Assembly: GCA_965203805.1 (NCBI GenBank)
Contig: OZ241917.1
Span: forward strand, 3,232,001 to 3,296,000
Source: Candidatus Latescibacterota bacterium
GTDB lineage: Bacteria; Latescibacterota; UBA2968; GCA-2709665
Reading direction: 5' to 3'
Length of the DNA: 64,000 bases
A program made the position numbers and the translations under genes. Of this stretch, positions 9,545 to 57,572 are shown piece after piece (within the stretch, counting starts at the first letter, position 1; every line of letters begins with the position of its first letter). The notes under the pieces were generated by a model, which was not told where the DNA came from, did not search any database, and was given only the letters and a program-made list of their open reading frames with translations.

Positions 9545-10660
9545 CACTGCCGGTGCTGAGCCTGTCGAAGCAAGCTTGCCGAAGTGCCTTGTCGAAGCGC
9601 CCTCGCTTACCGATCGTGGCAGGTCGCCATTCGGCGGACAAAACCACTTTGGAGCTAACCTACTGGGGGACAAGGGCTTTATCTCCCCCGCCAACTCTTA
9701 TTTTCTCTTCGTCCTTTTCAAAAAGCGGTGAGACGTAAGACGTGAGACGGGAGAGATTGCCTGCCCCGTGAGATTTCAGCTCAGACCGAAGGCATTGTGG
9801 AGGAGCGATTCGGGCAAGGATTTCTTCTACCGTCTACCGTTTCACCTCTCCCCGAATTTGAAGAAGCGTGCCGCTCGGCGCGGGGCCGGTTTTTCCGTGA
9901 ACCACCTCAGTGGCGTAAGTGGAAATTGGTTGCCCTGTCACCGTACCAGCCCTGCCGGAACTATGTTGCTAGACGGATTTGCACGGAAAAAACCCCCACT
10001 CCGCCACCGTTCGCTTGACTAAACTGCGCGAGGTTTGATGCATTTGCGATCTTGACGATTATGCGCTTGAGAACCCCCGACACCCCCACCAACCTACCCC
10101 CTATCCCCCTTCCCGAAGGAAGGGGGAACGGAGATCCTATCAGGGAGTCCTGGTTGTCTCCCCCTCTCCCCCCGGGAGAGGGGGTTGGGGGGAGAGGTCT
10201 GCGGCGTTGGGGGTGGTTCGCTCTCGGCTGATTGCAGTTGCTTTCCTTTGTGTCTTCGTGTCTTTGTGTGAGCAGATTTTCGTTTTTGATCTTGGCTATC
10301 GGTCGAGAGCTAACGTCTGCCCTCATCATCCAGGCACCCATCGGTTTACAAAGGTATATCCTGACCGGAGAACGACCAGAGCAGAGCGCGCTGATCCGTC
10401 CAGCAACGCGGTTCGATGTGCCTCCGAGGGTGTCGGGGCAAAGGATCCTGTGCATCCTGTGAGCGTGTTCGCGCTATGCATTTCGCAGGCCCCACGCCCA
10501 GTGGCGACTTTTGGTTCCTTTTGGTCGCTTTAAAAGGAACACGCCGTAGGCAGGGAATTTGGGGAGATGTGGATGTTGAATTTGATTCTTGTTTTTGATT
10601 TTCGCTCTTGCTTCAAGCTGACCGCTGATGGCTGACTGCTGAAAGCTGCTTTTCTCCTTC
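9545..10660 (+). repeat. Mosaic intergenic repeat locus 1 (modules A, C, REP arms, B)
   Basis: Modules shared with loci 2-7. Confidence 0.9.
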
Positions 10661-10693
10661 CGAATTCAGGCAACTTGTTTCCGGGAAAGAACA

Positions 10694-11434
10694 CTAGATT
10701 GTCTTGCCGCCGTCCACCACCAGAACCTGCCCGGTTACCAATTCGTTCACGACCAGGCCCAGAATCGCATTCGCGATATCTTCGGGTTCCGCGACGCGCT
10801 GGAGGGGCGTGGCTTCGCGATTCACGCGAACGAATTCCTCCCAACCCTTTACCCAGCGTGTGTTGACGATGCCGGGGGCCACGGCGTTTGCCCGGATGCG
10901 GGGCGCCTGGCTGACGGCCAGGGATTTGGTGAGGGAGATCAGCGCCGCCTTGGAGGCGCAATACGCGATGGAGCTGCCCTGCCCGCAGGTGCCGGCGATC
11001 GATGCTACGCTCACGATCTGGCCCCCTGCTTCGGGCATTCTGGCGATCGCCGCCCTGGCGCAGTAGAAAGCGCCTTTCACGTTGACGTCAAAGACGGGAT
11101 CCCAGGCGTCGTCGGTGAGGGCCTCGAGGTCGGCCAACGGCACGAAGACGGTGGTTCCCGCGTTGTTGACCAGGATGTCCAGCCGGCCCAGTTCTCCAAC
11201 CACACGGTCCACCATTTCGCGGACGGCGCTCTCGACCGACACGTCGGTGCGGATTGCGATCGAGTTTCGGCCAAGCGCACGGACATCGGCCGCCGTGGCT
11301 TCGGCTTCCTTCCTGGAACGCGAATAGTTGACGGCCACGTCGGCCCCTTCCGAAGCGAGCAGCAGGGAGGTCGCTCTTCCGATTCCCGTGCCGCCGCCGG
11401 TCACGAGCGTGACTTTTCCGTCCAAACGGCCCAT
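10694..11434 (-). CDS. SDR family oxidoreductase
   Basis: TGGGTGIG, NNAG, YCASK. Confidence 0.93.
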   Translation of the reverse strand: MGRLDGKVTLVTGGGTGIGRATSLLLASEGADVAVNYSRSRKEAEATAADVRALGRNSIAIRTDVSVESAVREMVDRVVGELGRLDILVNNAGTTVFVPLADLEALTDDAWDPVFDVNVKGAFYCARAAIARMPEAGGQIVSVASIAGTCGQGSSIAYCASKAALISLTKSLAVSQAPRIRANAVAPGIVNTRWVKGWEEFVRVNREATPLQRVAEPEDIANAILGLVVNELVTGQVLVVDGGKTI

Positions 11435-11477
11435 ATAGGATCCTTTCGATTTGGTGTATGGGAATTGTTTTCAAGAT

Positions 11478-12749
11478 CTACGGATCTGCAAACGGGATGG
11501 CGACGACGTCGCGGATGTCTGCTGAGTCGGCAAGCACCATCAGCAAACGATCCACGCCGAGGGCGATGCCGCCGGCCGGCGGCATGCCGGCTTCGAGGGC
11601 GCCCAGGAATTGCTCGTCGATCGGATAAGCCGGTCGACCGCTGTCCCGTCGCTGCGCCGCTTCTTCTTCCAGCCGGGCCCTCTGTTCGGCGGGGTCGTTC
11701 AGTTCCGTAAAAGCGTTGGCGAGTTCCACGCCCGAAACATAGAGTTCGAACCGCTCCGCGATGCCGGGCGCATTCTGTTTCAATCTGGCAAGCGCCGCCA
11801 TCTCCGCGGGGTAATCCACGAGGAAGGTTGGGCGTCCCGCGCCGAGGCGTTTTTCCACGGCATCCAGAAACACCTTGAAATAAGCGGTCTCAAACCCATC
11901 GCCGGGAACGACCGACAGGTGGCCGTTCCGGCGGGCTTCCCGGACGAACGCGTCGAGATTCTCCGAGGGATCGGCGGACACACCGGCGTACTTTGCAAAT
12001 GCTTCCCGCACGCTCAGGCGTTGCCACGGGGGGGTGAAGTCGACGGTTCGACCCCGGTACGCGATGGATGATTTCCCGGTGAGTTCACGTACCATGCCGT
12101 GAATCAGATTCTCCGTGTCACCCATGATGGTGGTGTAGTCGGCGTAGGCCCTGTACCATTCGAGAAGCGTGAATTCGGGGCTGTGCATGGGGCCGGGCGG
12201 GTCCTGGCGGAACGACTTGCAAATCTGGAAGATGCGTTCGTACCCGGCCGCCAGGAGGCGCTTCATCGCGTATTCGGGTGAGGTCGGCAGATAATACTGT
12301 TTCGCGTGCCCGTTGGCGCGGTAGTGGGTTTCGAAGGCGTCCAGATGGGGTTCCATACCCGGGCAGCGAACGAGAAGCGGCGTCTCGACTTCCAGGAATC
12401 CCGCGTCCTCGAAAAAACGCCTGACGTACGACAGAACCCAGGAGCGCATCCGCAGGATCCGCGATGCGGGTCCTGACTCTGGTGGGCGCAGGGCCGGCGC
12501 CAGAACCCGGTGGCTTCGGACGCGAAATGCAGGAGGCCGCCAGATGCCCCGAACCTCCACCACGTGTCCCGGCCGAAGCGTTCCCGGCGCCTCGAGGGTC
12601 ACCTCGCCCGACTCGTCAACCAGCCGTGGATTGTCCGCCCCCGCGCCGGCAGCGACCCGACCGGCCAGAATCGCTTCGTCACCCGGCGCCAGGTCCGAGA
12701 CGCGATGGGTACGGGCGCACCCCGCGGGATAGGTGTTGGATTCAGACAT
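11478..12749 (-). CDS. epmA: EF-P lysine aminoacylase EpmA/GenX with N-terminal extension
   Basis: TSPEYAMKRLL, HSPEFTLLEWY, ERFELY..GVELANAF, GIALGVDRL. Start inferred at MSESN. Confidence 0.85.
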   Translation of the reverse strand: MSESNTYPAGCARTHRVSDLAPGDEAILAGRVAAGAGADNPRLVDESGEVTLEAPGTLRPGHVVEVRGIWRPPAFRVRSHRVLAPALRPPESGPASRILRMRSWVLSYVRRFFEDAGFLEVETPLLVRCPGMEPHLDAFETHYRANGHAKQYYLPTSPEYAMKRLLAAGYERIFQICKSFRQDPPGPMHSPEFTLLEWYRAYADYTTIMGDTENLIHGMVRELTGKSSIAYRGRTVDFTPPWQRLSVREAFAKYAGVSADPSENLDAFVREARRNGHLSVVPGDGFETAYFKVFLDAVEKRLGAGRPTFLVDYPAEMAALARLKQNAPGIAERFELYVSGVELANAFTELNDPAEQRARLEEEAAQRRDSGRPAYPIDEQFLGALEAGMPPAGGIALGVDRLLMVLADSADIRDVVAIPFADP

Positions 12750-12894
12750 ACAAGTGTCCGGGAGTCCGCAGTCGCCGTGTGGTGCGGCAATGAATGAAAG
12801 ACCCTTCCGGAAAGGGCCATACGGAATATAGGATAACCGGTGTCGGGGAGCAACACGCATCCGTGCGGGACGGAACTCCGGATGGAAAAATCCC

Positions 12895-13450
12895 TTGCCG
12901 ACGGTTCTTTTGCGGTCATATATTTCGGAACAGCGTTCCGGGCGGTCCTGAACTTCACCTCTCCCATTTGCTTTTTTAAAAAAGCGGTGAGACGGTAGAA
13001 GGAAAAATGAAGAATGAAGAATTAAGAATGAAAACCTGAAGGCGGTGAGACGTAAGAGGGTAGACGGTAGTTAAAGGCGGTGAGAGGATAGAGGGTAGAC
13101 GTTAGATGACGTCCTTGCCCGATTGGTTTTATCGTTATGCCTGCGGCAAGAGATGATACCGAACAGGCAATCATATAATCTCACGTCTTACGTCTACCCG
13201 CTCTTCAGGCACTCATGTCATCTCCCGTCTCACGTCTCCCCTCTCACCGCCTTTCAGACCTACCCCCTTCCTATAAGGAAGGTGGAAAGCGGGATCCTAT
13301 CGCGAGGCGTTCGTTACCCTTTCCTTATAGGAGAGGGTCCCTGCCTGGCGGTGGTTTTTCGGCAGGCAGGGGGGAGAGGTCTGAGGGGTTGGGGGTGAGG
13401 GCGCTCTTGCTTCAAGCTGACTGACGAACGCTGATAGCTGACAACTGCAT
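12895..13450 (+). repeat. Mosaic intergenic repeat locus 2
   Basis: AAGAATT/GAATG heptamers, GAGACG arms with core C1, REP arm with CCTGCCTG palindrome. Confidence 0.88.
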
Positions 13451-13497
13451 TTTCCTCTACAAGGCACCTGACACGCATATTGGAGAATCTCGCGGAC

Positions 13498-14079
13498 ATG
13501 AGACGTTCAACAAGCCGGCATGGGGTTTCACTTTCTATCGCTTTTCTTGCAATTACAATGGTCCTGCTTTGTTGCGTCCCGGCGTGGGGCGGCTCTTTCA
13601 AAGCCGGCGCCGGAATCTTCTTCAACAATAATGAACCCGGGGGAGGCGTATCCGTCGACCTGAGCGACGCGGGACTGGGGTTTTCGCCCTTTGTGGACTA
13701 TTTCGGCAACTCCGGGTCGCGCGTCTTCGGCGGCGGGCTCAACATCGTCGCAAAACGCACCGGGGGCGCGCAGTCGCGACTCTATATCGGCGTGGGGGGA
13801 GGCATCGCCTCAGTGGAGGCGGAAGAAACGTCGGCCGGCCTCACCGGCTCGGCGTCAAAAACACAGGCGATGGCCGACTTGGTGCTGGGTATCGAGTTCG
13901 ACCTGCACGAGAACATCGGGGGGTTCGTTCAGGTGAAGTGGCTCGGGACCTTCGGCGGCGGCAGGTTGGACATTACAGGTGAGGTTGACGGACGGACGGT
14001 TACGATACCGGACGCGATAGACCTGGAACTCAGAAGTTTCGCCGCCCAGGCAGGCGTTTCGATCGGCTTCTGGAACTGA
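13498..14079 (+). CDS. Outer-membrane beta-barrel protein, paralog 1
   Basis: Signal peptide, alternating beta strands, FSPFVD, GGGLN, C-terminal aromatic residues. Start uncertain. Confidence 0.75.
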   Translation: MRRSTSRHGVSLSIAFLAITMVLLCCVPAWGGSFKAGAGIFFNNNEPGGGVSVDLSDAGLGFSPFVDYFGNSGSRVFGGGLNIVAKRTGGAQSRLYIGVGGGIASVEAEETSAGLTGSASKTQAMADLVLGIEFDLHENIGGFVQVKWLGTFGGGRLDITGEVDGRTVTIPDAIDLELRSFAAQAGVSIGFWN

Positions 14080-14161
14080 GCGCCATCGCCGACGGGCGGG
14101 GAGCGCCGTCCGCGATGACCTGAATTTGAACTTCCATCCCCACCAAAAGAACCGGTCATTG

Positions 14162-14202
14162 GAAACCGCCGGCGTGCCTCCAGAGATGCAGCCGGCGGTT
14201 TT
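14162..14202 (+). terminator. Intrinsic terminator-like hairpin
   Basis: AACCGCCGGC...GCCGGCGGTTTTT. Confidence 0.55.
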
Positions 14203-14306
14203 TCGGTTGATTTCCGGCCCTGTTTTAGCGATTATTGTTGAGGTCATTCCCTTCTTGCAACCGGATATTCCAGCGCTTGACGCCGCACCAGTCCCGGGAG
14301 GCTTTA

Positions 14307-14912
14307 ATGCACGGTTTAACCCGCGCTCTCTTTGCCGTCTCCGTTGCTGCAATGCTCACGACTTCCGCCGCGTGGGCGCAGCACGCGGTCAAGCTTGGCG
14401 CAGGCATACACTTTGACGAAGAAACGCCCGGCATCGGACTCGCATACGACATCAATGCCTCGGAAGGGCTGGTCGCGTTTTCGCCGTTTATCGATTTCTT
14501 TACCAAATCCGAAAACACGGTGTTCGGGGGCGGTTTGAACCTGGTCGTGAAACGTCCCGTGGGAGAAAAAGGCATCTTCTATTTCGGGGGCGGAGGCGGT
14601 GTAGGCAGCGTGACGTCCGTGAGGGAATTCGAAATTGAAAGTGAGACCGAGACCACGGCGCCGGCCGATGAGAGGGTGGAAGCTTCAAGAACGCAGGCAA
14701 TGGCAAACGTGCTGGTCGGCCTGGAATTTGCCACGACCGAGAGAGCATCGGTTTTCCTGCAGGCCAAGTGGATCGGCATGTACAGTGGAGATCCCGAAGT
14801 TTATACGCTCTCCGACGGCAGAGAAGTCGCGCCTGAACTGGATGTGAAAAGTTTCGCATTCCATGTCGGCCTTTCCATCAATATCGGTCAGTCTGAATAT
14901 GAAGGTTATTAG
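14307..14912 (+). CDS. Outer-membrane beta-barrel protein, paralog 2
   Basis: GGGAGG RBS, signal peptide ending AWA, FSPFID, GGGLN, FLQAKW. Confidence 0.78.
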   Translation: MHGLTRALFAVSVAAMLTTSAAWAQHAVKLGAGIHFDEETPGIGLAYDINASEGLVAFSPFIDFFTKSENTVFGGGLNLVVKRPVGEKGIFYFGGGGGVGSVTSVREFEIESETETTAPADERVEASRTQAMANVLVGLEFATTERASVFLQAKWIGMYSGDPEVYTLSDGREVAPELDVKSFAFHVGLSINIGQSEYEGY

Positions 14913-14972
14913 TTACATCCGTCGCGCGTGAGATTGCGATGACCGCGGGTGACCGTGCGTATTGGAGGCATA

Positions 14973-15476
14973 ATGAGAATTCGACTGATGGTTTTGCTGT
15001 CCGGCCTCGCTCTGCTGACGGCCGCGCCCGCCGCCGCAAGAGATTTCGCGGTGAATTTCGGGGGCGGCACGCTCTTCGACTCGACCCGGCCGGGCGGTCA
15101 TTTTTCGTTCGAGATGTCGCTCAGTGACGAGTATCCCACCCACCTCGCCCCTTTCTGTGAATTTTACAACGATTCGGGCACAAGGATCATCCCGGTAGGC
15201 ATCTCGCTGCTTTACAAACCGCCCCTTTCGGAATACGGCGGCACGATATATTTCGGCGCCGGCGGCGGCGCATTGCTCATTCGGGGACAACCCGGTCCCG
15301 GCCTTGCAACGGGAACGGACGGAATGATCACGGTGGCGGGCGGTCTGTCGTTCGGCGTGGGCGCCCGCGCGGGCGTCTTCGTGCAGGTGCGCTGGTTCCG
15401 ATCGTTCGAAGATCAGACCGCGGAGAACGAAATCGGCATTCAGGCGGGATTGCGTTTCTATCTGTCGGAAGGCTGA
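14973..15476 (+). CDS. Outer-membrane beta-barrel protein, paralog 3
   Basis: GGAGG RBS, signal peptide, YFGAGGG, FVQVRW, QAGLRFY. Confidence 0.78.
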   Translation: MRIRLMVLLSGLALLTAAPAAARDFAVNFGGGTLFDSTRPGGHFSFEMSLSDEYPTHLAPFCEFYNDSGTRIIPVGISLLYKPPLSEYGGTIYFGAGGGALLIRGQPGPGLATGTDGMITVAGGLSFGVGARAGVFVQVRWFRSFEDQTAENEIGIQAGLRFYLSEG

Positions 15477-15511
15477 TTGCAATACAGCATACGGGTTAAC
15501 CCCGGGAGTTC

Positions 15512-15551
15512 AAAAGCGCCGGTAGCCCTCTTCAGGGCGCCGGCGCTTTTG
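15512..15551. terminator. Bidirectional terminator
   Basis: AAAAGCGCCGG...CCGGCGCTTTT between convergent genes. Confidence 0.65.
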
Positions 15552-15643
15552 CTTTGAAAGATCCGGATGGCCGTCAACGGGCAGCTGTCCGGGCTCGCCG
15601 CCGCGGACAACCGGGCAGCATTCGAGCGACCGTCCCGGCGGCG

Positions 15644-17143
15644 TCAACCGCGGTTCCTGAGCAGATCGACCAGAAGACGCACGCCCACGCCCGTGCCGCC
15701 TTTGGGGATGTGCGGCAGGTCTTTCTGCGCCCACGCGGTGCCTGCGATGTCCAGGTGAGCCCATGGAAACTCCTGCACGAAGGCCTCGATGAACGCCGCG
15801 CCCGTGATGGCGCCTCCGGCCCGGCCGCCGGTGTTCTTGATGTCGGCAACGTCGCTTTTCATCTCCTCCCGGTGGCCGTCCAGAATGGGAAGGCGCCACG
15901 CGATTTCGCCCGTTCTTTCTCCAGCAGCGGCGATTTCGGAAGCCAGTGCGTCATCGTTGGAGAAGAGCCCGCTGGCCTCGTGTCCGAGGGCGATGACGCA
16001 GGCGCCCGTAAGCGTTGCAAGATCGATGGCGGCAGACGGCTTGTACGCGCTGGCCCAGGCCACGGCGTCGGCCAGGACAAGGCGGCCTTCGGCGTCCGTG
16101 GACCGGATTTCGATGGTTTTCCCGAGAAGGGACCGGATAATGTCGCCCGGCTTGAGCGCGCGGCTGCCGGGCATGTTTTCCGAGGCGGCCACAAGGCCGA
16201 TCGTGCGGACCGGCAGATTCAGCCGCGCAACCGCCTGCATGGCGCCGATGACTGCGGCGGCCCCGCCCATGTCGAACTTCATATCCCACATGCCGTCGGA
16301 GCCTTTGATGGAAATACCGCCGGAGTCGAACGTGATGCCCTTGCCGATAAGCACGACGGGCGCCCCCTCCGGATCCCCGCCGTCGTGTTCAAGCACGACG
16401 AACCTGGGGGGTTCCGCGCTGCCCTGCGCCACGGCCTGGATGGTGCGCATGCCTTCCCCGGCAATCCTCTTCTCGTCGAATACCTCGCACCGGAGGCCTG
16501 CTTCGCGTGCCATCGTCTCCGCGCGACCGGCGAGTATGGCGGGCGTCATTTCGTTTCCAGGATGACTGCCGAGGTCGCGGGCAAGGCAGACGGCTTCGGC
16601 GATGATTCGCCCCGTCTCCGCCCCGGTTTTGATGTACGCCCGTTTTTCCTCGAGGAATTCGACGAGCGTGAGACTTTCGAGTTCACCGGTATCGTCGTCG
16701 TCTCCGCTCTTGTACGGTGTGAATCGATAAGTGCCCAGAATGGCGCCTTCGACGACGGCCTGGGCGGCCTCGCGCGCGTCCATCCTCCCAACCCCGGCCC
16801 CGTGGATAATCGAAGCCAGGCGTCCCGAGCCCAGGCTTTGCGCACGCTTCGCCGCGACCGCTGAGACCTGCCGGACCCTGTCGAGGGTGAAGTCCTCGCT
16901 CTTGCCCAGACCCACGAGAATGACGCGTCTCGCAGTCATGCCGTCCTGTGGATATAGCACGGCCACCTGCTTGAACTTGCCGGTGAAATCTCCACCGGAT
17001 ATCAGATGCCGGATCTGGCCGTTCATGGCGCTGTCCGCGGCGCCCGTTGCGCCGCCGGGCACGGTGACGCCCTCGAAGAGATTCACCACAATGGCATCCG
17101 CGTCGTACGCCGCGATGTTGTCAATCGCAACCGATATGTTCAC
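15644..17143 (-). CDS. pepA: Leucyl aminopeptidase (M17)
   Basis: GKGITFDSGG, MKFDMGG, TDAEGRL, ATLTGA, HLDIAG. Confidence 0.95.
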   Translation of the reverse strand: MNISVAIDNIAAYDADAIVVNLFEGVTVPGGATGAADSAMNGQIRHLISGGDFTGKFKQVAVLYPQDGMTARRVILVGLGKSEDFTLDRVRQVSAVAAKRAQSLGSGRLASIIHGAGVGRMDAREAAQAVVEGAILGTYRFTPYKSGDDDDTGELESLTLVEFLEEKRAYIKTGAETGRIIAEAVCLARDLGSHPGNEMTPAILAGRAETMAREAGLRCEVFDEKRIAGEGMRTIQAVAQGSAEPPRFVVLEHDGGDPEGAPVVLIGKGITFDSGGISIKGSDGMWDMKFDMGGAAAVIGAMQAVARLNLPVRTIGLVAASENMPGSRALKPGDIIRSLLGKTIEIRSTDAEGRLVLADAVAWASAYKPSAAIDLATLTGACVIALGHEASGLFSNDDALASEIAAAGERTGEIAWRLPILDGHREEMKSDVADIKNTGGRAGGAITGAAFIEAFVQEFPWAHLDIAGTAWAQKDLPHIPKGGTGVGVRLLVDLLRNRG

Positions 17144-17299
17144 AAAACCTCCCTTACGAGAAAGGCACGAGAAAACGAAAAGACGCGAGAAAACGAGAAG
17201 ACGAAGAAACGCGAGAAGACGAAGAAACGCGAGAAGACGAGTAACGGCGGTGGATTAAACCATCATAGACCGTATGTCATTACGCCGGCCGCACGGGCG

Positions 17300-17920
17300 T
17301 CACCGAAAAAACGGATTGGTGGATTTCTCAATGCCCACTGTGGTGAAGGGGCCATGCCCGGGATAGACCCTGGTCTCGTCGTCCAGAGTCAGAATCTTCT
17401 CCCGTATTGACTTGAGCAGCAGGGCCGCGTCGCAGCCCGGCAGGTCGGTGCGGCCGATCGAGCCGGCGAACAGGGTGTCGCCCACGATCGCGTGCCCGGG
17501 CCATTTGAGCGTGATATTGCCGGGCGCATGCCCCGGCGTGTGGACAATCTCGAACGTCTCTTCACCCATCCTGACGACGTCGCCCTCTTCGAGAAACCGG
17601 TCGATGCGCGGCGGCGGCTCCGCTTCCATACCGACGGTTGCGGCGATCTCGACCAGGTTTTCGACCCTGAGACGGTCGGCCGGATGGATCGCGAAGGGGG
17701 CGCCGGTTTCGCGGACGGCGGAGGACGCGTGTGCGATGTGGTCGTAATGCCCGTGGGTGGCGATGATTTCCACAATGCGGATGTCGTCTTCGCGGACGAG
17801 TTCAATGATATCCGGGATGTTGTCGCCCGGATCCACGATGATGCCCTCGAGGGTCTTTTCACAGGCCAGTACGAAGCAGTTCACCTGCAGGGGTCCGACG
17901 ACGATCGATTTGAAGATCAA
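17300..17920 (-). CDS. MBL-fold metallo-hydrolase (glyoxalase II-like)
   Basis: THGHYDH, HTPGHAPG, GDTLF, PGHG. Confidence 0.93.
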   Translation of the reverse strand: MIFKSIVVGPLQVNCFVLACEKTLEGIIVDPGDNIPDIIELVREDDIRIVEIIATHGHYDHIAHASSAVRETGAPFAIHPADRLRVENLVEIAATVGMEAEPPPRIDRFLEEGDVVRMGEETFEIVHTPGHAPGNITLKWPGHAIVGDTLFAGSIGRTDLPGCDAALLLKSIREKILTLDDETRVYPGHGPFTTVGIEKSTNPFFR

Positions 17921-17979
17921 GAAATGCTCCTCATGGTCAGCCAGATCCTCCTGTGGTATCCCGACACCGGTATGTCACT

Positions 17980-18675
17980 TCGCCTGTGGGTGGACAAACC
18001 GGCTTTGGATCTATCCTATTGGGGGACAATGACTTTATCTCTCCCACAAGCTCTCATTTTCTCTTCGTCCTTTTCAAAAAGCCGTGAGCCGTAAGACGCA
18101 AGACGGGAGAGGTTGCCTGCCCTGTAAGGATTCTGTTCAGGCTTGAGGCATTGATAATGAGCCGTTTGGGCAAGGATGTCTTCTACCGTCTCACGTCTTC
18201 CCGCTTTTTGAAGAACGGCGCCGCTCGGCGCGGGGCCGGTTTTTCCGTGAACCACCTCAGTGGCATAAATGGAAATTCGCTGCCCTGTCACCGAAACAGC
18301 CCATCCCGAACGATGTTGCTGGACGGATTTGCACGGAAAAACCCCCAACACCACCACCGTACGCTTGATTAGGAACTTACAAAGAACCGTACGGCGATGT
18401 TTCTGCGCGATGAAGCGTTTACAGACCCCCCAACACCCCCACCAACCTACCCCCTTTCCCCCTTCCCGGGGGGAAGGGGGACCCCCGGATCCTATCGCGT
18501 GGCGTTCGTTTCCCTTTCCTTATAGGAAAGGGTCCCTGCCTGCCGGTGGTTTTTCGGCAGGCAGGGGGGATAGGTCTGCGCATCCGCGAGGTCATGTCGC
18601 CAGGCCTTATCGTCGCCCCGTTGAAGCAGGATGTCATCTCCCGTTTTACGTCTCACGTCTCACGTCTCCCCGCTT
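17980..18675 (+). repeat. Mosaic intergenic repeat locus 3
   Basis: Module A interrupted by module C, plus REP arms. Confidence 0.9.
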
Positions 18676-20001: not shown

Positions 20002-20065
20002 AACGCTCCTTCTTCGAGCTCAATAAGGGTGAATCGGCTTGTCAGGCCGGGCAGGATCTCTTATC

Positions 20066-20506
20066 TTAGGATCCCGCCGCGCGAACGGGGATCCCCAGCA
20101 TCCTGTGTTTCAGCGATGCGTTTTCCCCGTTCCTGATTTTCCACAGCAGATAAACCATCAGCAAAATACCGGCGCCGTCATACAGCACGTCGGTCCAGGT
20201 TCCCATGCGCTCCGGAACGGAATTCTGATGGATCTCGTCGGTCACGGCGTAACAGACGGAAAGCGCCGCGCTCCATGCCAGGCATGGACCGAACCGCCGC
20301 CCTGCCGTCCAGACCGACCGCAGCCAGAGATAGGTCAGTATCGCATATTCGGTCAGATGGGCGAGCTTGCGAACCGCGTAGTTCAAGACGCCGAACCAGG
20401 CCTCCGTCGCATCCGCGGACATCCCGAAAGCCATCCATCTGCTCGACATCAGAAAGATCAGTCCCATCCAGCCCGCCAGCGCGATTCGCCATCGTATGAC
20501 CGTCAA
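20066..20506 (-). CDS. VanZ family membrane protein
   Basis: VRKLAHLTEYAIL, YAVTDEIHQ..VPER. Start inferred. Confidence 0.85.
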   Translation of the reverse strand: MTVIRWRIALAGWMGLIFLMSSRWMAFGMSADATEAWFGVLNYAVRKLAHLTEYAILTYLWLRSVWTAGRRFGPCLAWSAALSVCYAVTDEIHQNSVPERMGTWTDVLYDGAGILLMVYLLWKIRNGENASLKHRMLGIPVRAAGS

Positions 20507-21362: not shown

Positions 21363-21385
21363 CGGGACCCTTCGATTCCGGACGG

Positions 21386-26020: not shown

Positions 26021-26024
26021 GACG

Positions 26025-36424: not shown

Positions 36425-37880
36425 ATCGGTGAGACGGGAGAAGGAAAAATGAAGAATTAAGAATGAAAACCTGAAGGCGGGGAGACGGTAGAGGAAACGA
36501 CCCGCTGGTTCCGGTTTGCCTATGGCATCCTGACAGGGCGCCTGTCGGCGGACAAACACCCGTTGGAACTGCGTTCCGGGCGATCCCAAACTTCACATCT
36601 CTAATTTACTTTTTTCTTCTTCGTCCTTTTTCTTATCCACGTGTACGGACCAAAAAGAAGCGTGCCTGCCTGCCGAGCAGGCTTCGGCGCAGGCAGGCCG
36701 CTCAAACGCCGCGGGGCTGCTTTTCCGCGAACCGCTTCCGTGGAGACACCGGGAGACGTTGCCCTGAAACCCTTACAGGCGTACCTGGACGACGTTGCTG
36801 GACGGACTCGCGCGGAAAAGCCCCATCCCCACCGCCATGCGCTTGAGTGAACTGCGCGAGGTTTGATGCATTTGTGATCTTGACGATTATGCGCTTGAGA
36901 ACCCCCGACACCCCCCCCCAACCTACCCCCTATCCCCCTTCCCGAAGGAAGGGGGAACGGCGATCCTATCAGGGAGTCCTGGTTGTCTCCCCCTCTCCCC
37001 CCGGGAGAGGGGGTTGGGGGGAGAGGTCTGCGGGGCTGGGAGTGGTTCGCTCCTGGCTGCTTCGTTTTTCTTCGTGTCTTCGTGCCTTTGTGTGAGCTGA
37101 CTTTGAATCTTGTTCTGACTATCGCTTCTGTTTCTGGCTGACTGCTGCTTTTCCCCCCTCCTCAGACCTACCCCCTAGCCCCCTTCCTGTGAGGAAGGGG
37201 GAACGGCGATGGGTCGATGGACCAGGCATGCAGACGTGCCGGCTGGCGAATTCCTGTCTATCAGTGTATCTATAGATGACCGGCACGCGATGACTGTCTT
37301 TTCTCCCCCTCTCCCCTTGGGAGAGGGGGCCTGCCTGCCGAGCAGAACTCGGCGCAGGCAGGCCGGGGGGAGAGGTCGCGTAAAAGCGGTGAGACGTAAG
37401 AGGTTAGACGGTAGATGAAGGCGGTGAGACGGTAGAGGTTAGACGGTAGATAATAACGTTACCACAGTGTTTTCACGCTAACCGTGCCTGTTTCTTTACC
37501 GATATGGTAACGACAAGAAAGACCATAGGGCACTGATATCATCTCCCGTCTTACGTCTCACGTCTCCCCGCCTTTCAGACCTACCCCCTAGCCCCCTTCC
37601 TGTGAGGAAGGGGGAACGGCGATGGGTCGATGGACTGGGCATGCAGACGTGCCGGGCTGGCGATTTCCTGTCAATCAGTGTATCTATAGATGACCGGCAC
37701 GCGATGCCTGTCTCTTCTCCCCCTCTCCCCCCGGGAGAGGGGGTTGGGGGGAGAGGTCTGCGGGGCTGGGGGTGGTTCGCTCCTGGCTGCTTTGTTTTTC
37801 TTCGTGTCTTCGTGCCTTTGTGTGAGCTGATTTTCGCTCTTGACTCAAGCTGATTGCTGATGGCTGATTGCTGTTTTTCG
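36425..37880 (+). repeat. Mosaic intergenic repeat locus 5
   Basis: Divergent module A, three REP-arm units (two with a duplicated cargo), core C2. Confidence 0.9.
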
Positions 37881-43244: not shown

Positions 43245-44525
43245 AGTTCGCCTGACGGCGGAAGAACACCCTTTGAAACTAACCTCCGGCAGGACAAGGG
43301 CTTAACCTCTCCCACAAACTCTATTTTCTCTTCGTCCTTTTTCTTGTACGCCCAAGAAAAAGGACCAAAAAGAACGGCGCCTGCCTGCCGAGCAGGCTTC
43401 GGCGCAGGCAGGCCGCTCGGCGCGGGGCCGGTTTTTCCGTGAACCACCTCAGTGGCGGAATTGGAATTTAGGTGCCCTGTCACCGGACCAGCCCATCCCG
43501 AACGATGTTGCTGGACGGATTTGCACGGAAAAACCCCCCACTCCACCACCGTACGCCTATTAGGACCACATGATGTTTGGAACGAAAATATCGCTAGCGA
43601 TTGTGCGTTTAAAAACCCCCCTCACCACCGCCGACCTACCCCCTATCCCCCTTCCCGGAGGGAAAGGGGGAACGGTGATCCTTTCAGGGTGTCCTGGTTG
43701 TCTCCCCCTCTCCTCACAGGAGAGGGGGCCGGGGGGAGAGGTCGCGTAACAGCGGGGAGACGTAAGAGGTGAGACGTTAGATGACGTCCTTGCCTGATTG
43801 GATCTTACTTTATGCCTGCGGCAAGAAATGAAACCGTACAGGGCACACAATATCTCCCGTCTTACGTCTCCCGTCTCCCCGCCCTTAGGGAATTTGGGGA
43901 GCTATGGATGTTGAATCTGATATTCGCTCTTGCTTCAAGCTGACTGCCGAATGCTGACCGCTGTTTGGTTTTCTTTGTGTCTTTGTGTCTCCGTGTGATA
44001 GGAATTTCGGTTTCGACTAAGCTCCGACGCCTGTCTTTTCTCCCCCTCTCCCCCCGGGAGAGGGGCCGGGGGGAGAGGTCGCGTAAAAGCGGTGAGACGT
44101 AAGAGGTGAGACGTTAGATGACGTCCTTGCCTGATTGGATCTTACTTTATGCCTGCGGCAAGAAATGAAACCGTACAGGGCACACAATATCTCCCGTCTT
44201 ACGTCTCCCGTCTCCCCGCTCTTCAGGCACTCACGGTATCTCCCGTCTAACGTCTCCCGTCTTACCGCCCCTCAGACCTACCCCCTTTCAGGGTGTCCTG
44301 GTTGTCTCCCCCTCTCCCCCCGGGAGAGGGGGCCGGGGGGAGAGGTCTGCGGGGCTGGGGGTGGTTCGCTCTCGGCTGAATGCTGACAGCTGTTTCTCAA
44401 CGGCAGGGAATTTGGGGAGATGTGGATGTTGAAGTTGATTCTTGTTTTTGATTCTCGCTCTTGCTTCAAGCTGACTGCCGAATGCTGACCGCTGTTGGCT
44501 GGTTGGGCGGCCGGGGGGAGAGGTC
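43245..44525 (+). repeat. Mosaic intergenic repeat locus 6
   Basis: Intact module A and a duplicated C1 unit (~43730-43880 and ~44068-44220). Confidence 0.9.
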
Positions 44526-47012: not shown

Positions 47013-47262
47013 CTTTGATTCGTCATTATTCGGGGACGTTAATTCGAATATGCGCAAGTGAATAAAGGCGATTTAACTGCAGATTTCCATGATCCTTCAG
47101 GTCACTGGATGTGAACGGAAAAAATGTCGTTCCGGACGACCTTTTCGGCCCGTTTCGGAAGGATTCGTCGCAGCGACCCGTTGCTGTTTTTGTCGAATTA
47201 CGGTTAATCCCCGCGCCATCCGGTCCGCCTGATGGCGTGTAAAAGAAGAGGTCGAATCCGCC

Positions 47263-48447: not shown

Positions 48448-48452
48448 GATGC

Positions 48453-50909: not shown

Positions 50910-50944
50910 CCGGGCGCCGCCGCGCGTCCCGAGGAGCGCAATCC

Positions 50945-52570
50945 ATGCAAGGCCAGATGATGGACTACCCGCTCACCCTGGACCGGATCCTCGAGCACGC
51001 CAACCGTCTGTATCCGCGCAAACGCATCACGACCGGATTGCCCGACGGGACCCTTCACCGCTACACGTACGCGGACCTGCGCCGCCGGTCGAAGCGGCTC
51101 GCCAGCGCTCTGGGCGGCCTGGGCGTCCAACCCGGCGACCGCGTGGGAACCTTCGCGTGGAACAACTACCAGCACCTGGAGCTGTACTTCGCGGTTCCGT
51201 GCAGCGGCGCCGTCTGCCATACGCTCAATATCCGCCTCTCGGCCGACCAACTGGCCTATATTATCAGCCACGCGGAGGACAAAGCCGTCTTTGTGGACGC
51301 GACCCTGCTGCCCCTCTTCGAAGCCGTGGCCGCCAGACTCGACCGTCCCCCCCGCGCCATCCTGTTCAATGCCGATCCCGGAACCGGCACGTCCCTCTCG
51401 GACGTCTGCGACTATGAAGACCTTATAGACAGCGGCAGCGACGCATTCGAATGGCCCGTCACCGACGAGGCCGCGGCCATGGGTCTCTGTTACACCAGCG
51501 GCACCACGGGCGAACCCCGGGGCGCGCTTTATTCGCACCGCTCGATGTTCCTGCACACCTTCGGCGTGAACCAGTCCAACGCCGTGGGCATTGTCGAATC
51601 GGATATCGTGATGCCGGTCGTACCCCAGTTTCACGCCATGGCTTGGGGTCTGCCCTATGCGTGCGCCATGGCCGGCGCGGACATGGTCCTTCCCGGACCC
51701 CACCTGAAGCCCGACGCCCTCGCCCGGACGATCGCGGACGAAGGCGTTACGGTGCCCGCCGGCGTTCCCACCATCTGGACCGGGCTCTATGAAGAACTGA
51801 AGGGCAACCCGCGCGACGTGTCCTGCATCCGGTCTCTGGTCGTGGGCGGTTCGGCCATGCCGCGCGGCCTGATCGAAGCCTACGAAACGGAACTCAACGT
51901 CCCGGTCCTGCACGCGTGGGGAATGACCGAACTCTCGCCCCTGGGCACCGTCTCCCGGCTGCAGCGGCATCACCGCGCCCTTTCGGACGCGGACAGGTGG
52001 GACGTCAAAGCCACGCAGGGGTATCCCATCTGCGGCGTTGAAATGCGGGTTGTGGATGACAGTGGAAGCGAAGCGCCCTGGGACGGCCGCAGCATCGGGG
52101 AGATTCAGGTCCGCGGCCCCTGGGTGATCGGGAGCTATTACAAACAGAAGCCTTCAGCCGACCGGTTCACGGACGACGGCTGGTTCCGGACCGGCGACGT
52201 GGGCGCGATGAGCCCGGACGGCTTCCTCCGCATCACGGACCGGACCCGAGACCTCATCAAGAGCGGCGGCGAGTGGATCTCCAGCGTCGAACTGGAGAAC
52301 GCGCTGATGGGGCACCCCGCCGTCACTGAAGCCGCCGTTATCGCCGTACCCGACGCGAAGTGGACGGAGCGTCCCTTCGCCATCGCCGTACGGTCGCCCG
52401 GCGCGGACCCGGTCACGGCCGAGGCGCTGCGGGCGCACCTGGCGTCGGCATATCCGAAATACTGGGTACCCGACCGGATCGTCTTCGTCGAGCAGATCCC
52501 CAAGACCAGTGTTGGAAAACTGGACAAGAAAGTGATCCGCCGCCGGCATGCCGAAGGACGGTTCGGATAG
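50945..52570 (+). CDS. Fatty acid-CoA ligase (AMP-binding)
   Basis: [30 protein letters not shown]. Confidence 0.92.
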
Positions 52571-52601
52571 CCGGCCGCGACCCGGGACAACAGGAACCCC
52601 G

Positions 52602-53333
52602 ATGCCTCTCCACCTGAAGAACCCTCACAGCATCCTGGCCGTTCTGCGATCCCGTCCCCAGGACGTCTACGAGATCCGTCTGCCGGACCCCGCGGCCGGC
52701 CCCTGGGGCCGGGTCCGGTCGTCCGCCGCGGAAATCGGCGTCAAAGTCACGAGCGGGACCCGCACGCCCCGGAGGCAAAACCGGACGGGCCGCGCGGGCG
52801 GCGCCGAGGCCGTCGTCAGGGAACGGCGCGCGGTCACCGTCCAGGACCTGTTCGCGAACGCGTCCGAGACCGGACTCTGGCTTGCGCTCGACCGCGTGCA
52901 GGACCCGCACAACGTGGGGGCGATCTTTCGCACGGCCGCCTTCTACGGCGTCCGCGGCATCCTGCTTACGCGGGACCGTTCCGCGTCGCTCACGGATACC
53001 GTGTACGACGTCGCGTCCGGCGGCGTGGAACACGTGCCCTTCTGCTTCCCGGCCAATCTCAGCAGGGCCCTCGACCTGGCGCGGAAGGCGAACCTCTGGA
53101 TTCTGGGCGCGTCCGAACACGCCGACGCCGACCTGAGCCGGATTGCGGGCGACCGGCCCTGGCTGCTGGTGCTGGGCAACGAGGAACGCGGGCTCCGCCG
53201 TCTCACGCTGGACAAATGCGACGTCACCTGCAGCATTCCATCGGCGGGCCGCGTCGCCTCCCTGAACGTCTCCGTGGCCGCGGGGATTTTCCTGCAGAAA
53301 CTCGCCCCGCCGCCGGAACCCGCCTCGCGATAA
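52602..53333 (+). CDS. TrmH/SpoU family RNA methyltransferase (RlmB-like)
   Basis: DPHNVGAIFRTA, GNEERG, SLNVSVAAG. Confidence 0.9.
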   Translation: MPLHLKNPHSILAVLRSRPQDVYEIRLPDPAAGPWGRVRSSAAEIGVKVTSGTRTPRRQNRTGRAGGAEAVVRERRAVTVQDLFANASETGLWLALDRVQDPHNVGAIFRTAAFYGVRGILLTRDRSASLTDTVYDVASGGVEHVPFCFPANLSRALDLARKANLWILGASEHADADLSRIAGDRPWLLVLGNEERGLRRLTLDKCDVTCSIPSAGRVASLNVSVAAGIFLQKLAPPPEPASR

Positions 53334-53452
53334 ACGGCCGGCGCCCGTATGCGATACAGGGCCGCGCCGCCCATGCTTCGGGAACCGGGCCCCCCTTGTC
53401 AGCATCTGCGTTATGCCTTATCTTTTTTTATAAAGGACCGGGAGAACAGCCG

Positions 53453-54079
53453 ATGCGCGAGACCATTTTCTGGGACGTGGATACCCAGTACGATTTCATC
53501 ATGCCGGACGGCAAGCTGTACATCCAGGCGGCGGAAAAAATCCTGCCCAACCTGGAGCGGCTCACCGCCTGCGCCCGGGAGCGGAACATCCCCATCTTCG
53601 GCTCGGTGGACTACCACAACCCCGACGATCCGGAGATTTCGGAGACGCCCGACTTCCAGGACACCTTTCCGCCGCACTGCCTGAAGGGCACGCCCGGCCA
53701 GCAAAAGGTCCCGGAAACACGAACCGCAAATCCGCTCTGGATCGACGGAGACGAGGAAGACCCCGCGGCCCTCGGAGAGCGGGTCCGCAGCCACGCCGGC
53801 GAGGTCATCTTCCGCAAACAACGCTTCGACGTCTTCACCAACCGGAACGTGGAACCGGTCCTGGATGCCGTCCGGCCCGGGCGCATCGTCCTGTACGGGG
53901 TTGCCCTGGACGTCTGCAACGCCTACGCCATCGACGGCTTTCTCGAGAGGAACACCGCTCCCGTCCACCTGGTCCTGGACGCCACGCAAGCCATCGTCCC
54001 CGAACGAGGTGAAACGCTCGTGGAAGGCTGGAAGGCCAGGGGCGTGACGGTCGTGTCGACCGACGAAATTACCGGATAG
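53453..54079 (+). CDS. Isochorismatase/nicotinamidase family cysteine hydrolase
   Basis: DVDTQYDF, FPPHC, GVALDVC. Confidence 0.88.
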   Translation: MRETIFWDVDTQYDFIMPDGKLYIQAAEKILPNLERLTACARERNIPIFGSVDYHNPDDPEISETPDFQDTFPPHCLKGTPGQQKVPETRTANPLWIDGDEEDPAALGERVRSHAGEVIFRKQRFDVFTNRNVEPVLDAVRPGRIVLYGVALDVCNAYAIDGFLERNTAPVHLVLDATQAIVPERGETLVEGWKARGVTVVSTDEITG

Positions 54080-54153
54080 ACAGATCCGCGTTCGATCGGA
54101 AACGCGGACGATGTCAGGCGAGTCAGCGACCGCAGCCCAACCCGGAGCCGCCC

Positions 54154-55254
54154 ATGATACTCGTGAACCGGCACACCCAATCGGGAGGCGCCCCCTTTCG
54201 CGCCACGTTGCGCATCAGGCCGGCTTCCCGCATGGAACTGTTCGACGTGCGAGGCAGGTTGAGAGAGGAATTCGGGTCGGACTTCACCCGGTATTCCAGG
54301 CAATTCTACATTTCGGACCACACCACGGCCGGGTACCTGGATCAGCGCCTCGCCGAGATGTTCGAGCACAGCGTGGACAACATCCAGGAATATCTCGACG
54401 TCTTCCGCAAGCTCTTTCCCCCCGATGCCGGCTACGTACACGACGAACTCGATTTGAGAACGGAGCTCTCCGAACAGCAGCGCGCCAACGAGCCCCTCAA
54501 CGCCGATTCCCACCTCACGTTCATGGGGGGCGGATTGGACAACAGCGCGTCCTATGAACTTCAGGGAAACGAGCCGGTCTGGTTCGTGGAACTCGACGGG
54601 GTGCACGTTGGCGGTTCCCGCAGCAGGCGGACCACGGTGGTCGCATACAGCGGCGAGGAGGAGGTCGCCCGGACGCAGGTGAGGGTGCCCGCGGCCCCTC
54701 ACGCGATAGACGCCCAGAACCTGAGGGATCCGGGTTACGGTTTTATCGCCGGGTTACAGTCGCTGGTGCGCGAGCACAGGGTATCGTTCGGTCGTATCGA
54801 CGTGTCCCTTGCCGCGACGGAAAACCACGCGGGCCTGACCGTCAACGAGTATGAGACCCTGCTCATGACCCATGACCTTCGGGAGGTCCTGCGAAACCCC
54901 TTCCACTATATGGCGAAGATCGGCAAGTCGGCGCTCCGCGCCCCGCGCGCCATCCCCGCGAAGGCCCGTAACTACGCAAAGTACGATGCAGTACAGCTGT
55001 TCAACGAATTCGTGAGCCGGGCGCGCATGGGGGGTTCGGTGGTGGAAACGCTCGTGAACCGGGCGCTGTCGGTCCCGGTCGCGCGCTTCCTGCGGATGAA
55101 GCGGGAGATCAGCCTGCCTGTTCTGGACCGCGAAGGAAGAGAAGGAATCGGCGAGATCGGCTGGGGCACCTACCAGAGCCCCATCCTGGTCCAATGGAAG
55201 GTCGCCTCGGGACCGGCCCGGACGCTGAACGTGAGGCTGATGCGGTTCGTTTAG
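54154..55254 (+). CDS. Hypothetical protein with two YjbQ/UPF0047-like halves
   Basis: HTTAG...YVHD...NADSHL...ELDG in the first half; AGLTVNE...DL...GTYQ in the second. Confidence 0.6.
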   Translation: MILVNRHTQSGGAPFRATLRIRPASRMELFDVRGRLREEFGSDFTRYSRQFYISDHTTAGYLDQRLAEMFEHSVDNIQEYLDVFRKLFPPDAGYVHDELDLRTELSEQQRANEPLNADSHLTFMGGGLDNSASYELQGNEPVWFVELDGVHVGGSRSRRTTVVAYSGEEEVARTQVRVPAAPHAIDAQNLRDPGYGFIAGLQSLVREHRVSFGRIDVSLAATENHAGLTVNEYETLLMTHDLREVLRNPFHYMAKIGKSALRAPRAIPAKARNYAKYDAVQLFNEFVSRARMGGSVVETLVNRALSVPVARFLRMKREISLPVLDREGREGIGEIGWGTYQSPILVQWKVASGPARTLNVRLMRFV

Positions 55255-55264
55255 CCGCGATTGC

Positions 55265-55313
55265 AAAAAAAAAACGCCATCGTCCGAGTAGACTGCGGGC
55301 GATGGCGTTTTTT
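55265..55313. terminator. Bidirectional terminator
   Basis: A-tract, CGCCATCG...CGATGGCG, T-tract between convergent genes. Confidence 0.8.
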
Positions 55314-55323
55314 CTTGTTGCCG

Positions 55324-56427
55324 CTATTTCCCCGCCGCCACGTCGAGGTCTTTGTCTTTGAACAGGTCCAGGTACTTTCCGTACCCCGCGGCCTTCAGCG
55401 CATCCGCGGGAATAAAGCGCAGCGACGCCGAATTGATGCAATAGCGCAGCCCGGTTGGCGGCGGTCCGTCCGGGAAGACGTGGCCAAGGTGGGAATCTCC
55501 GTACTTGCTGCGGACTTCCGTGCGGGTGATGAAGAGGCTGTTGTCCACGCGTTCCACCACGTGCCCGGAAACCAGGGGCCGCGTGAAGCTCGGCCATCCG
55601 GTTCCGGACCGGTACTTGTGCGTGGAGCTGAAGAGCGGCTCGCCCGAGACGATATCCACGTAGATGCCCGCCTTCTTGTTGTCCCAGAATTCGTTGCGGA
55701 ACGGCCGCTCGGTGCCGTCCTCCTGGGTCACGTTCCACTGGATTGGCGTGAGCTTCCGGCGAAGCTCGGCTTCGGGGGGTTTGACCCAGTTCCCGCTGGA
55801 AGACTTCGCGGGTTTGTCCCGCCCCCAGGTCCGCTCGATGAAGCGGTCGCGGCCCGAGCCTTTCCGGTATCGGTTGTAATGGTCCGGCTTCTTCCTGTAG
55901 TAATCCTGGTGGTAGTCCTCCGCGGGATAGAAGGTTTGTGCGGGGCGGATGGGCGTGACGATGGGGGCGTCGAACCGGCCGGATCCCGCGAGCGTTTCTT
56001 TCGACGCTTCGGCGAGCTTTTTCTGCTCCTCGTCATGGTAGAAAATGGCGGACGTGTACTGGTGGCCCCGGTCATAGAACGACCCTCCCGAATCGGTGGG
56101 GTCGAACTGCCGCCAGTAGACGTCAAGCAATTGGGCGTAGGTGACGACAGCGGGGTCGTACGTGACCAGCACCGCTTCGATGTGCCTGGTCTGCCCCTTG
56201 CTGACCTGCCCGTACGTGGGGTTCACGATCGTTCCGCCGGTATAGCCGGATACCGCGGAGACCACGCCGTCCAGCTTGTCGAAAGGGGCTTCGATGCACC
56301 AGAAGCAGCCTCCGGCGAACGTGGCCTGCGCCGCGTTTTTCGTTTCGGACCGCCCGTCGCCGGCGCCAAGGGCCAGGGCGACAACCAGGACGGCGGCGGT
56401 GAACAACAGCACAAGGGTCGTTTTCAT
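55324..56427 (-). CDS. msrAB: Exported peptide methionine sulfoxide reductase MsrA/MsrB fusion
   Basis: Signal peptide, [27 protein letters not shown]. Confidence 0.95.
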
Positions 56428-57572
56428 ATCGCATCCTCCTGACTATCCGATCCTCGGGGAAATTGCGCGAGGGCGCGCTGATTCGATGTACTTTTTCATA
56501 ACGCCTGTCGGCCGGTAATGGTTGCAGGGAACTGAAGAGAAGGAAGAAGGAAAAAGGAAGAAGGAAGAAGGAAGAAGGAAAACCGGTTGTGGTCCTCGTT
56601 CGTATTATCCATCATGTCCTGACAGGCCGCCTGCCGGCGGACAGACACCCGTTGGAACTAACCTCCTGGGGGACATTGACTTTACTCCTCCAACCAACTT
56701 TCATTTTCTCTTCGTCCTTTTTCTTGTACGCCCAAGAAAAAGGACCAAAAAGAACGGCGCCTGCCTGCCGAGCAGGCTTCGGCGCAGGCAGGCCGCTCGG
56801 CGCGGGGCCGGTTTTTCCGTGAACCACCTCAGTGGCGCAATTGGAATTTGGGTGCCCTGTCACCGAAACAGCCCTGCCGGAACTATGTTGCTGGACGGAT
56901 TTGCACGGAAAAACCCCCCTCTCCACAACCGTCCGCTTGATAGGAACTTACAAAGCACCGTACGGCGATGTTCCTGCGCGCTGGAGCGTTTACAGACCCA
57001 CCAACCTACCCCCTATCCCCCTTCCCGGGGGGAGGGGGAAACTGTGATCCCCTCGTGGTGTCCTGGTTTGCTCCCCCTCTCCCCCCGGGAGAGGGGGCCG
57101 GGGGGAGAGGTCTGAGGGGTTGGGGGTGAGGGCGCTCTTGATTCTGGCTGACGGCTGAGAGCCGACCGCTGATTGCTGCTCTAAGGAAGGGAGAAAGCGG
57201 GATCCTATCGCGTGGCGTTCGTTACCCTTTCCTTATAGGAGAGGGTCCCTGTCTGGCGGTGGTTTTTCGGCAGGCAGGGGGGAGAGGTCTGCGTAAATTC
57301 GGGGAGACGTAAGAGGGTAGACGGTAGATGAAGACATTTACCGCAGTGTTTCTACATAAACCGTGCCTGTTTTTTTACCGATATGGTAACGACTGGAAAA
57401 ACCATGGGGCACTGATATCATCTCCCGTCTCACGTCTACCCGCCTCCGCCGACCTACCCCCTATCGCGTGGCGTTCGTTACCCTTTCCTTATGGGGCTTA
57501 TATACTTAACTTGATATTTGTTTTAGGTTGTTCTACCAATCAACCCGTCAACATCACAGAGGAGAAGTTGAT

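Follow-up and report, generated by a model that had tools for sequence, protein, structure and literature searches.

Five copies of element A in the window

We analysed a window of 64,000 nucleotides (nt) from Candidatus Latescibacterota bacterium (GenBank assembly GCA_965203805.1, contig OZ241917.1, positions 3,232,001 to 3,296,000), in which a dispersed repeat, here called element A, occurs five times at the positions given by an initial annotation made from the letters alone. All five copies lie on the minus strand, and coordinates refer to the window unless the genome is named. Copies 4 (43249..43560) and 5 (56629..56940) are intact and are the only ones that keep a pseudoknot, the other three being broken; in copy 4 the pseudoknot spans 43334-43379, followed by an insert (43380-43412) and by the two arms of a basal stem, P1 (43431-43441 and 43524-43534). 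In copies 1 (9630..10018) and 2 (17981..18368), P1 and its loop are intact and the pseudoknot is disrupted, most of it being replaced in copy 1 by a heptamer-armed hairpin element of unassigned strand (about 9720..9860, ends approximate) and interrupted in copy 2 by a heptamer-armed insert (about 18076-18210). Copy 3 (36539..36848), of a subfamily termed A2, has divergent P1 arms (36719-36729 and 36811-36821) and a 33-nt hairpin insert (36665-36697), and lacks one tract of pseudoknot stem 2. The repeat had been described as a unit of about 310 bp, but only a core of about 175 nt is conserved, the remainder consisting of the 33-nt hairpin (copies 3-5), the heptamer-armed insert of about 140 nt (copies 1-2) and a tail, about 100 nt long, that is less well conserved.

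The P1 11-mer, with up to two mismatches, matched the window 40 times, compared with 20.3 +/- 4.1 times in shuffled sequence, and none of 100 shuffles reached 40. The long-range pairing reported earlier is present with its arms 82 nt apart in four copies, although the partner arm is exact in only three of them (copy 1 has an extra A, 9982-9992), while the arms of copy 3 are exactly as reported and lie 81 nt apart. Likewise, of the two islands thought to be fixed, the shorter is exact in all five copies, but the longer carries one change in copy 1. A profile of the five stem regions gave 37 matches in the 5.87-Mb genome, 30 of them full length. The two compensatory changes of copy 3 are real, but they mark subfamily A2, whose arms are common to 11 of the 30 full copies, and were inherited once or twice instead of arising repeatedly; alone, they are weak evidence for structure.

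A predicted pseudoknot beside the basal stem is supported by covariation

Read along the minus strand, the core consists of P1, a small hairpin (P2) and an H-type pseudoknot. In copy 5, the 11-bp P1 (56811..56914) pairs 56904-56914 with 56811-56821 and closes an 82-nt loop (56822-56903), P2 (56793..56805) has 4 bp, two of which covary, and the pseudoknot (56714..56759) combines a 4-bp stem 1 (56756-56759 with 56729-56732) and a 12-bp stem 2 (56734-56745 with 56714-56725). A 33-nt palindromic micro-insert of unassigned strand (56760..56792) lies at the junction of P2 and the pseudoknot; it is present in 33 of 90 family copies, and the joined form lacking it was seen in reads. Along eight positions, loop 1 of the pseudoknot mirrors the purine strand in stem 2 as its parallel complement, and this geometry predicts eight triples of the T.A-T and C.G-C types, with a putative third strand at 56747-56754 on the minus strand.

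To assess the fold, 90 knot-bearing copies of the family were collected and 56 distinct ones, from 14 genomes of the genus, were aligned, with the 33 copies carrying the micro-insert and one with a longer insert set aside. The named structure is paired in 98.1% of cells, compared with 50-59% in slid controls; double-sided changes occur in 9 of 31 pairs, and 0 of 500 shuffles reached the covariation score. Kinship inflates plain counts of double changes, and events were therefore counted on a tree, a count that ignores recombination between copies. On the tree, the best-supported pairs showed seven double changes in stem 2, seven in stem 1 and six and four in P2, but only two in P1. The strongest structural signal therefore lies in P2 and the pseudoknot, which adjoin P1 and had not been noticed before. 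The stem that was flagged initially is real, even though just one of its pairs has two independent double changes, and it is better supported because a sister family, B, has a wholly different stem around a related loop. At the aligned columns, eight of the 56 copies fail P2 because A2 has a longer P2 loop. Together, covariation supports the four helices of element A, and the earlier view that selection acts on a single strand with a more elaborate fold than a simple repetitive extragenic palindromic (REP) sequence is supported.

A descriptor search of the genome found 39 complete knots, 23 in A and 16 in B, and none in reversed and complemented sequence. When the third-strand condition was dropped, a pseudoknot scan returned the same 39 sites, all in A or B and all with a mirror loop; its rows were judged by eye, the automatic tags over-reading the purine tract. 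The pseudoknot is intact in 23 of the 30 full copies. Single-sequence folding of the stem region gave z scores of -0.3 to -2.9 (10 folds), which are not strand-decisive.

Element B is present in the window on the plus strand (10381..10540), with a basal stem (10381-10390 with 10470-10479), a 79-nt loop related to that of A, the same small hairpin region and a pseudoknot (10503-10540) with four predicted triples. It thus swaps the whole basal stem around a related loop, and forms a divergent doublet with copy 1; five A copies form such doublets with B in the genome.

The P1 loop varies in sequence and keeps its length

The P1 loop measures 81 or 82 nt in 83 of the 90 family copies, in a search that allowed about 60-100 nt, and the B loop 79 nt in 17 of 17 copies, with 60-110 nt allowed. 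The A loop has accumulated 770 substitutions against 22 gap-column changes, and mean identity in its middle is 45%. The best reading of these data is a constraint on length, under which the variable loop would act as a spacer, holding two short conserved islands beside the stem at a fixed distance from each other. No pairing within the loop was found by consensus folding or by a tree-aware scan, mean z scores being near 0 with RNA and DNA parameters. A coding remnant was rejected, since stops occur in 25-48 of the 56 copies in each frame and no period from 2 to 12 was found, as was directed hypermutation, since 290 changes showed no strand or base asymmetry.

Element A is gained and lost among relatives

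By DNA search, element A was found in 14 of 14 genomes of the genus and 18 of 21 of the family. The full element occupies 5 of 15 orthologous loci for copy 5, 1 of 13 for copy 2 and 7 of 15 for copy 4, its own genome included; three loci lacking a gene start were left out of these counts, and a few end at contig edges. In relatives without the element, some of the spacers are 114-261 nt long and others hold different repeats, while at shared sites the orientation is the same and some A sites persist across species. Three relatives keep fragments at the copy 2 site. Both gain and loss of copies therefore occur, and the presence/absence pattern supports the earlier suggestion that the repeat is mobile. 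Compared with a MITE and its terminal inverted repeats, the A monomer has no terminal repeats; doublets form long inverted ends, and the junctions are buried in other repeats.

Gene context was taken from our own simple gene calls; of 32 rows, two were mis-oriented duplicates and were removed. Of the remaining 30, 18 have the knot strand in the sense of the upstream gene and 17 in that of the downstream gene, which shows no strand preference, and the genes beside A copies are unrelated to each other. Nineteen of the 30 copies lie in one 250-kb region, with a peak at 3.0-3.5 Mb near dnaA (3.64 Mb), and A is enriched in the dnaA-proximal half in three of four genomes. In its own genome, a replichore bias by local skew (22-23 of 30) is suggestive; as a general feature it was rejected, since four genomes disagree.

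The knot joins element A to a wider structural class

Searches at greater distance linked the knot to the Rfam family TwoAYGGAY (RF01731). Among 20 distant loci searched against Rfam, TwoAYGGAY matches end at the start of the knot, and a match to a Burkholderia small RNA (sRNA) starts within it. A mirror-strand knot directly follows all 30 RF01731 matches checked (29 of 83 in one genome and 1 of 1 in another). According to the accessible parts of a preprint, an extended TwoAYGGAY element has a basal stem, a 3' pseudoknot, divergent doublets and a mobile-like expansion, largely in Pseudomonadota, and adjoins REP arrays; its main text contains neither 'triplex' nor 'triple helix' (bioRxiv 10.64898/2026.09.22.753630). 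That our knot is the same as the one in the preprint rests on two other genomes and metagenome matches, not on Pseudomonas loci. Our literature search, with subscription papers outside its reach, found no paper on the triplex core.

As far as the extended TwoAYGGAY element is described in these sources (see also Weinberg 2010, PMC2864571), element A resembles it in its long basal stem, extra hairpin and 3' pseudoknot, and in its many intergenic copies, large copy-number swings and divergent doublets. It differs in lacking the AYGGAY hairpins, in place of which it has the unpaired 81-82-nt loop: AYGGAY occurs in A loops on the knot strand in 1 of 30 and on the other strand in 23 of 30, and RF01731 matched nowhere in the window and nowhere in the genome, where 150 of 251 candidates were scored. 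Judged by sequence, element A appears to work like the extended TwoAYGGAY chassis but lacks its defining hairpins. By eye, the 3' island of its loop is similar to part of one TwoAYGGAY seed row, namely the 3' arm of the second hairpin, and the loop may be a decayed version of that hairpin domain. The window itself gave no Rfam match at cut-off, with only weak matches around copy 5. The repeat is not entirely unrecognised, since its 3' chassis is common to the extended TwoAYGGAY element.

A general three-tract pattern was found in 41 of 168 genomes of the phylum (0-118 matches each), against 7 control matches in total, and a stricter variant in at least 130 GTDB loci and 14 viral contigs. Among 80 listed GTDB loci, most are from Betaproteobacteria, and Gammaproteobacteria, Zetaproteobacteria, Desulfuromonadales, Bacillota, Bacteroidota and Uhrbacteria are also represented. 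Although the pattern did not ask for stem 1, 95 of 119 distinct distant types have it, compared with a mean of 18 and a maximum of 31 in permutations, as do 35 of 53 unique loops (mean 6.5, maximum 16). Three loci retrieved with an AYGGAY query have differing purine tracts, each mirrored by its own loop. The domains upstream of distant knots vary, with a tandem-GA hairpin motif in 19 of 85 clusters and at least two AYGGAY in seven. Neighbouring copies in the distant loci are divergent in 30 cases, convergent in 9 and tandem in 2, some being counted twice.

Outside chromosomes, the exact A-family pattern had no match in viral contigs, and mirror and direct-repeat patterns matched 10 of 120 and 5 of 102, a weak test in which two controls are real members. 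A plasmid search gave one partial match. A loose pattern of two AYGGAY was mostly noise in metagenomes, where a knot accompanied 6 of 57 hairpin-like matches and 0 of 63 others, and added little in viral sequences. Shares of sequencing runs were tried as a habitat signal and set aside as uninformative (under 0.2).

Taken together, it is possible, if doubtful, that these loci form a pan-bacterial mobile class, in which an ssDNA (single-stranded DNA) triple-helix pseudoknot, moved by an uncharacterised enzyme, carries interchangeable apical domains and the TwoAYGGAY 'RNA' is one branch. The apical domain would be the ruler-like 82-base loop in element A and, in other members, either a pair of AYGGAY hairpins or a tandem-GA hairpin capped by a GNA triloop. 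As a separate observation, one of 20 carrier clusters (L345:1080-1540) has the tandem-GA motif turned round with respect to the knot, which suggests flipping between hairpin arms. In several phage contigs, the knot lies near genes that we take, from their sequences, to be RadC-like and ArdC-like. Such genes are typical of early-transferred single-stranded regions.

Other known systems share part of this design. BoxC/PIT/TM(ECO) is an intrastrand triplex repeat, TM being 37 nt long, G/C-rich and of the purine motif (Holder et al. 2015, PMC4666352). On the available parts of that description, A is similarly multicopy and intergenic, with three tracts in mirror arrangement, inverted pairs, a patchy distribution between close relatives and no tie to gene orientation; its plus strand reads as BoxC/TM class II and its minus strand as class IV. 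However, its tracts are T/A-rich and fail the G/C-rich class II consensus, and they are locked by a covarying pseudoknot stem within an element of 175 nt that has several helices. BoxC-like repeats are found next to A as separate units.

REP sequences, bacterial interspersed mosaic elements (BIMEs) and REPINs, which go with the transposase RAYT, are non-autonomous and, like A, intergenic; they form alternating or inverted arrays whose spacers vary, and serve as targets of IS110-type elements. Unlike REP/REPIN, A has no GTAG or CGTC tag, is five times longer, is pseudoknotted and is not accompanied by a RAYT gene flanked by the repeat. In the telomerase RNA pseudoknot and the element for nuclear expression (ENE), stem 2 can accept a pyrimidine loop 1 as third strand, giving U.A-U and C.G-C triples. 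Element A is like them in geometry only, as an H-type pseudoknot with a pyrimidine loop 1, and unlike them it is bacterial and dispersed and has no known template or poly(A) partner. For the STAXI motif, ssDNA and RNA have been debated from loop type; as far as it is described there (PMC2864571), it consists of pseudoknots in tandem, has UUCG loops and lies near genes for DNA handling, whereas A has no Rfam match and no UUCG-type loops.

A proposed selfish element recognised as a folded strand

We tentatively favour the explanation that element A is a non-autonomous selfish element whose folded minus strand is recognised by an enzyme, more likely as ssDNA than as RNA. Because copies come and go, lie in either direction relative to genes and are frequently broken, selection on the fold probably serves the copying of the element itself. 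Copying would be limited to copies whose fold is intact, so that the structure would persist in the family even as individual copies decay. The knot may be the end that the enzyme recognises or cuts, which would explain why other elements land in it: heptamer-armed hairpins are inserted into the knot of copies 1 and 2 and of two B copies, and the 33-nt hairpin at the P2 junction likewise lands beside it.

Several observations weigh against this explanation. The triple helix is deduced from sequence, and the fragments left at the copy 2 site in three relatives mean that part of the presence/absence polymorphism is due to loss. The sites compared showed neither a clean junction between empty and filled states nor a target duplication, and orientation relative to replication is inconsistent across four genomes (20/30, 23/48, 22/35 and 13/47). 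No mobilising enzyme for A was found: there is no recurring open reading frame (ORF) family among 1139 ORFs near distant knots, and for each of the Y1_Tnp, DUF559, four-helix-bundle and reverse transcriptase (RT) genes, one or more single-contig genomes rich in the element lack it, with none of 92 such gene loci flanked by the element on both sides. Nor was an autonomous parent element found among ORFs in the gaps. A knot lies within 1.5 kb of 1 of 32 Y1_Tnp loci and on both sides of none; the two Y1_Tnp genes of the genome carry other flanking repeats, and Y1_Tnp does not track the element.

Single-stranded DNA or RNA

The same selfish repeat could instead work as RNA, with the triplex knot guarding or marking the 3' terminus of a short transcript from which DNA would be made in trans, a reading that we consider rather improbable. 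In favour of RNA, the predicted design, an H-type pseudoknot whose major groove takes up a pyrimidine third strand, is that of telomerase RNA and ENE. On the knot strand, G.T pairs outnumber A.C pairs 18 to 3, which fixes the working strand and leaves the polymer open, and GNRA tetraloops are enriched (10 versus 1 on the other strand). Both counts suit RNA equally or better, and thus tell against ssDNA. In three metatranscriptome runs, from two studies, contigs span 24-28 of the 28 bins of copy 5, but they give no strand, ends or level and may derive from DNA or read-through. The Rfam sRNA overlapping the 3' side of a distant knot was detected by RT-PCR, according to the accessible part of that report (PMC3521395, Khoo 2012).

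The lean to ssDNA comes from the loops, because DNA-type C(GNA)G triloops prevail and cUNCGg is absent. C(GNA)G, the commonest loop, is confined to the knot strand in 26 clusters and to the other strand in 5 (p 0.0002), with 0 and 2 of 56 in far flanks, while cUNCGg loops number 0 on the knot strand and 5 on the other. Mini-hairpins GCGNAGC and GCGNNAGC are, in the consulted portion of one study, far more stable in DNA than in RNA (PMC13037366). This lean is tempered in that stricter clustering reduces the triloop excess to 15 versus 5 (p 0.04) and in that the excess comes mostly from distant members, not from element A. CsrA is absent from the genome and from six of six family genomes, which we counted for DNA; two of five element-rich genomes tested have no RT, and the loop lacks base-specific hypermutation, both of which speak against an RNA form. 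The 'RNA' label of the initial annotation is thus not sustained, nor is a ribozyme, since no Rfam ribozyme matched in the window, around copy 5 or in the 20 distant loci.

Alternative explanations

Spread of element A might need no dedicated mobiliser, if the triplex stalled forks or recruited repair and copies spread and were lost by recombination and gene conversion between intergenic hot spots rich in repeats. Such spread has been proposed for BoxC/TM, and TM loci are unstable in E. coli, on the available text of PMC4666352. The mosaics that A copies form with BoxC-like, heptamer and GTAG repeats, the 250-kb concentration, the shared orientation at shared sites and the lack of a partner gene fit this alternative, yet it leaves unexplained why four helices, a mirror strand and the 81-82-nt spacing are kept through repeated double changes and across phyla, and we regard it as unlikely.

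A host-beneficial trans-acting noncoding RNA or ribozyme, for example a multicopy protein sponge as proposed for TwoAYGGAY, is also unlikely, and a shade more so. The chassis common with TwoAYGGAY, the sites that persist across species and the dnaA-proximal enrichment would agree with it; the near-absence of AYGGAY from the knot strand of the loops, the lack of RF01731 matches among the candidates scored and of CsrA, the freedom with which copies are broken or absent, and a loop with neither a conserved catalytic core nor internal pairing do not. A cis-acting leader, terminator or mRNA 3' stabiliser of neighbouring genes, suggested by knot ends lying 40-500 nt from the next gene in most copies, is very improbable and largely refuted by the absence of strand preference, the unrelated neighbours and the sites empty in close relatives.

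Repeats and genes around element A

Inside stem 2 of one A pseudoknot (genome 4837500-4839800) lies a single-copy transposase element, which we take from its protein to be IS110-like. The 3.0-3.5 Mb region is also the peak for BoxC-like (50 of 108), heptamer-armed (50 of 125) and CCTG...CAGG repeats. Heptamer-armed elements in the window (13039-13254, 43747-43887 and 44084-44223) have a near-constant interior length and a central GNA-triloop mini-hairpin. Two small ORFs, one with a weak DUF2513 match, lie between repeats at 57528-58225, upstream of a radical SAM-like gene, and in 12 relatives the flanking genes adjoin without them. Similar small cargo in other repeat clusters is, judging from its sequence, Uma2-like, PIN-like and DUF559.

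A RAYT-like gene (genome 4532312-4535533) is flanked by its own REP doublets with spacers of about 100 nt, a stretch of which resembles the A loop by eye. Elsewhere, a Y1_Tnp domain is in frame within a 1252-amino-acid open frame (genome 4546470-4549700), as it is in several relatives. In the relative genome G008, group II introns are inserted directly behind tandem repeats of heptamers or decamers. Two that lie close to element A or B are inserted into heptamer repeats, and A was therefore rejected as their target.

Significance of the knot

Most known natural pseudoknots that hold a long triple helix in the major groove come from eukaryotic or viral RNA. Here, a predicted triplex knot is the most conserved part of a repeat class in several phyla, with up to about 100 copies per genome. 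The orphan TwoAYGGAY family thereby gains a structural core and a likely life style, and the class points to an uncharacterised mobilising enzyme. Short synthetic strands offer a test of RNA against ssDNA, and should DNA be the working form, element A would provide a natural, selected DNA pseudoknot-triplex.

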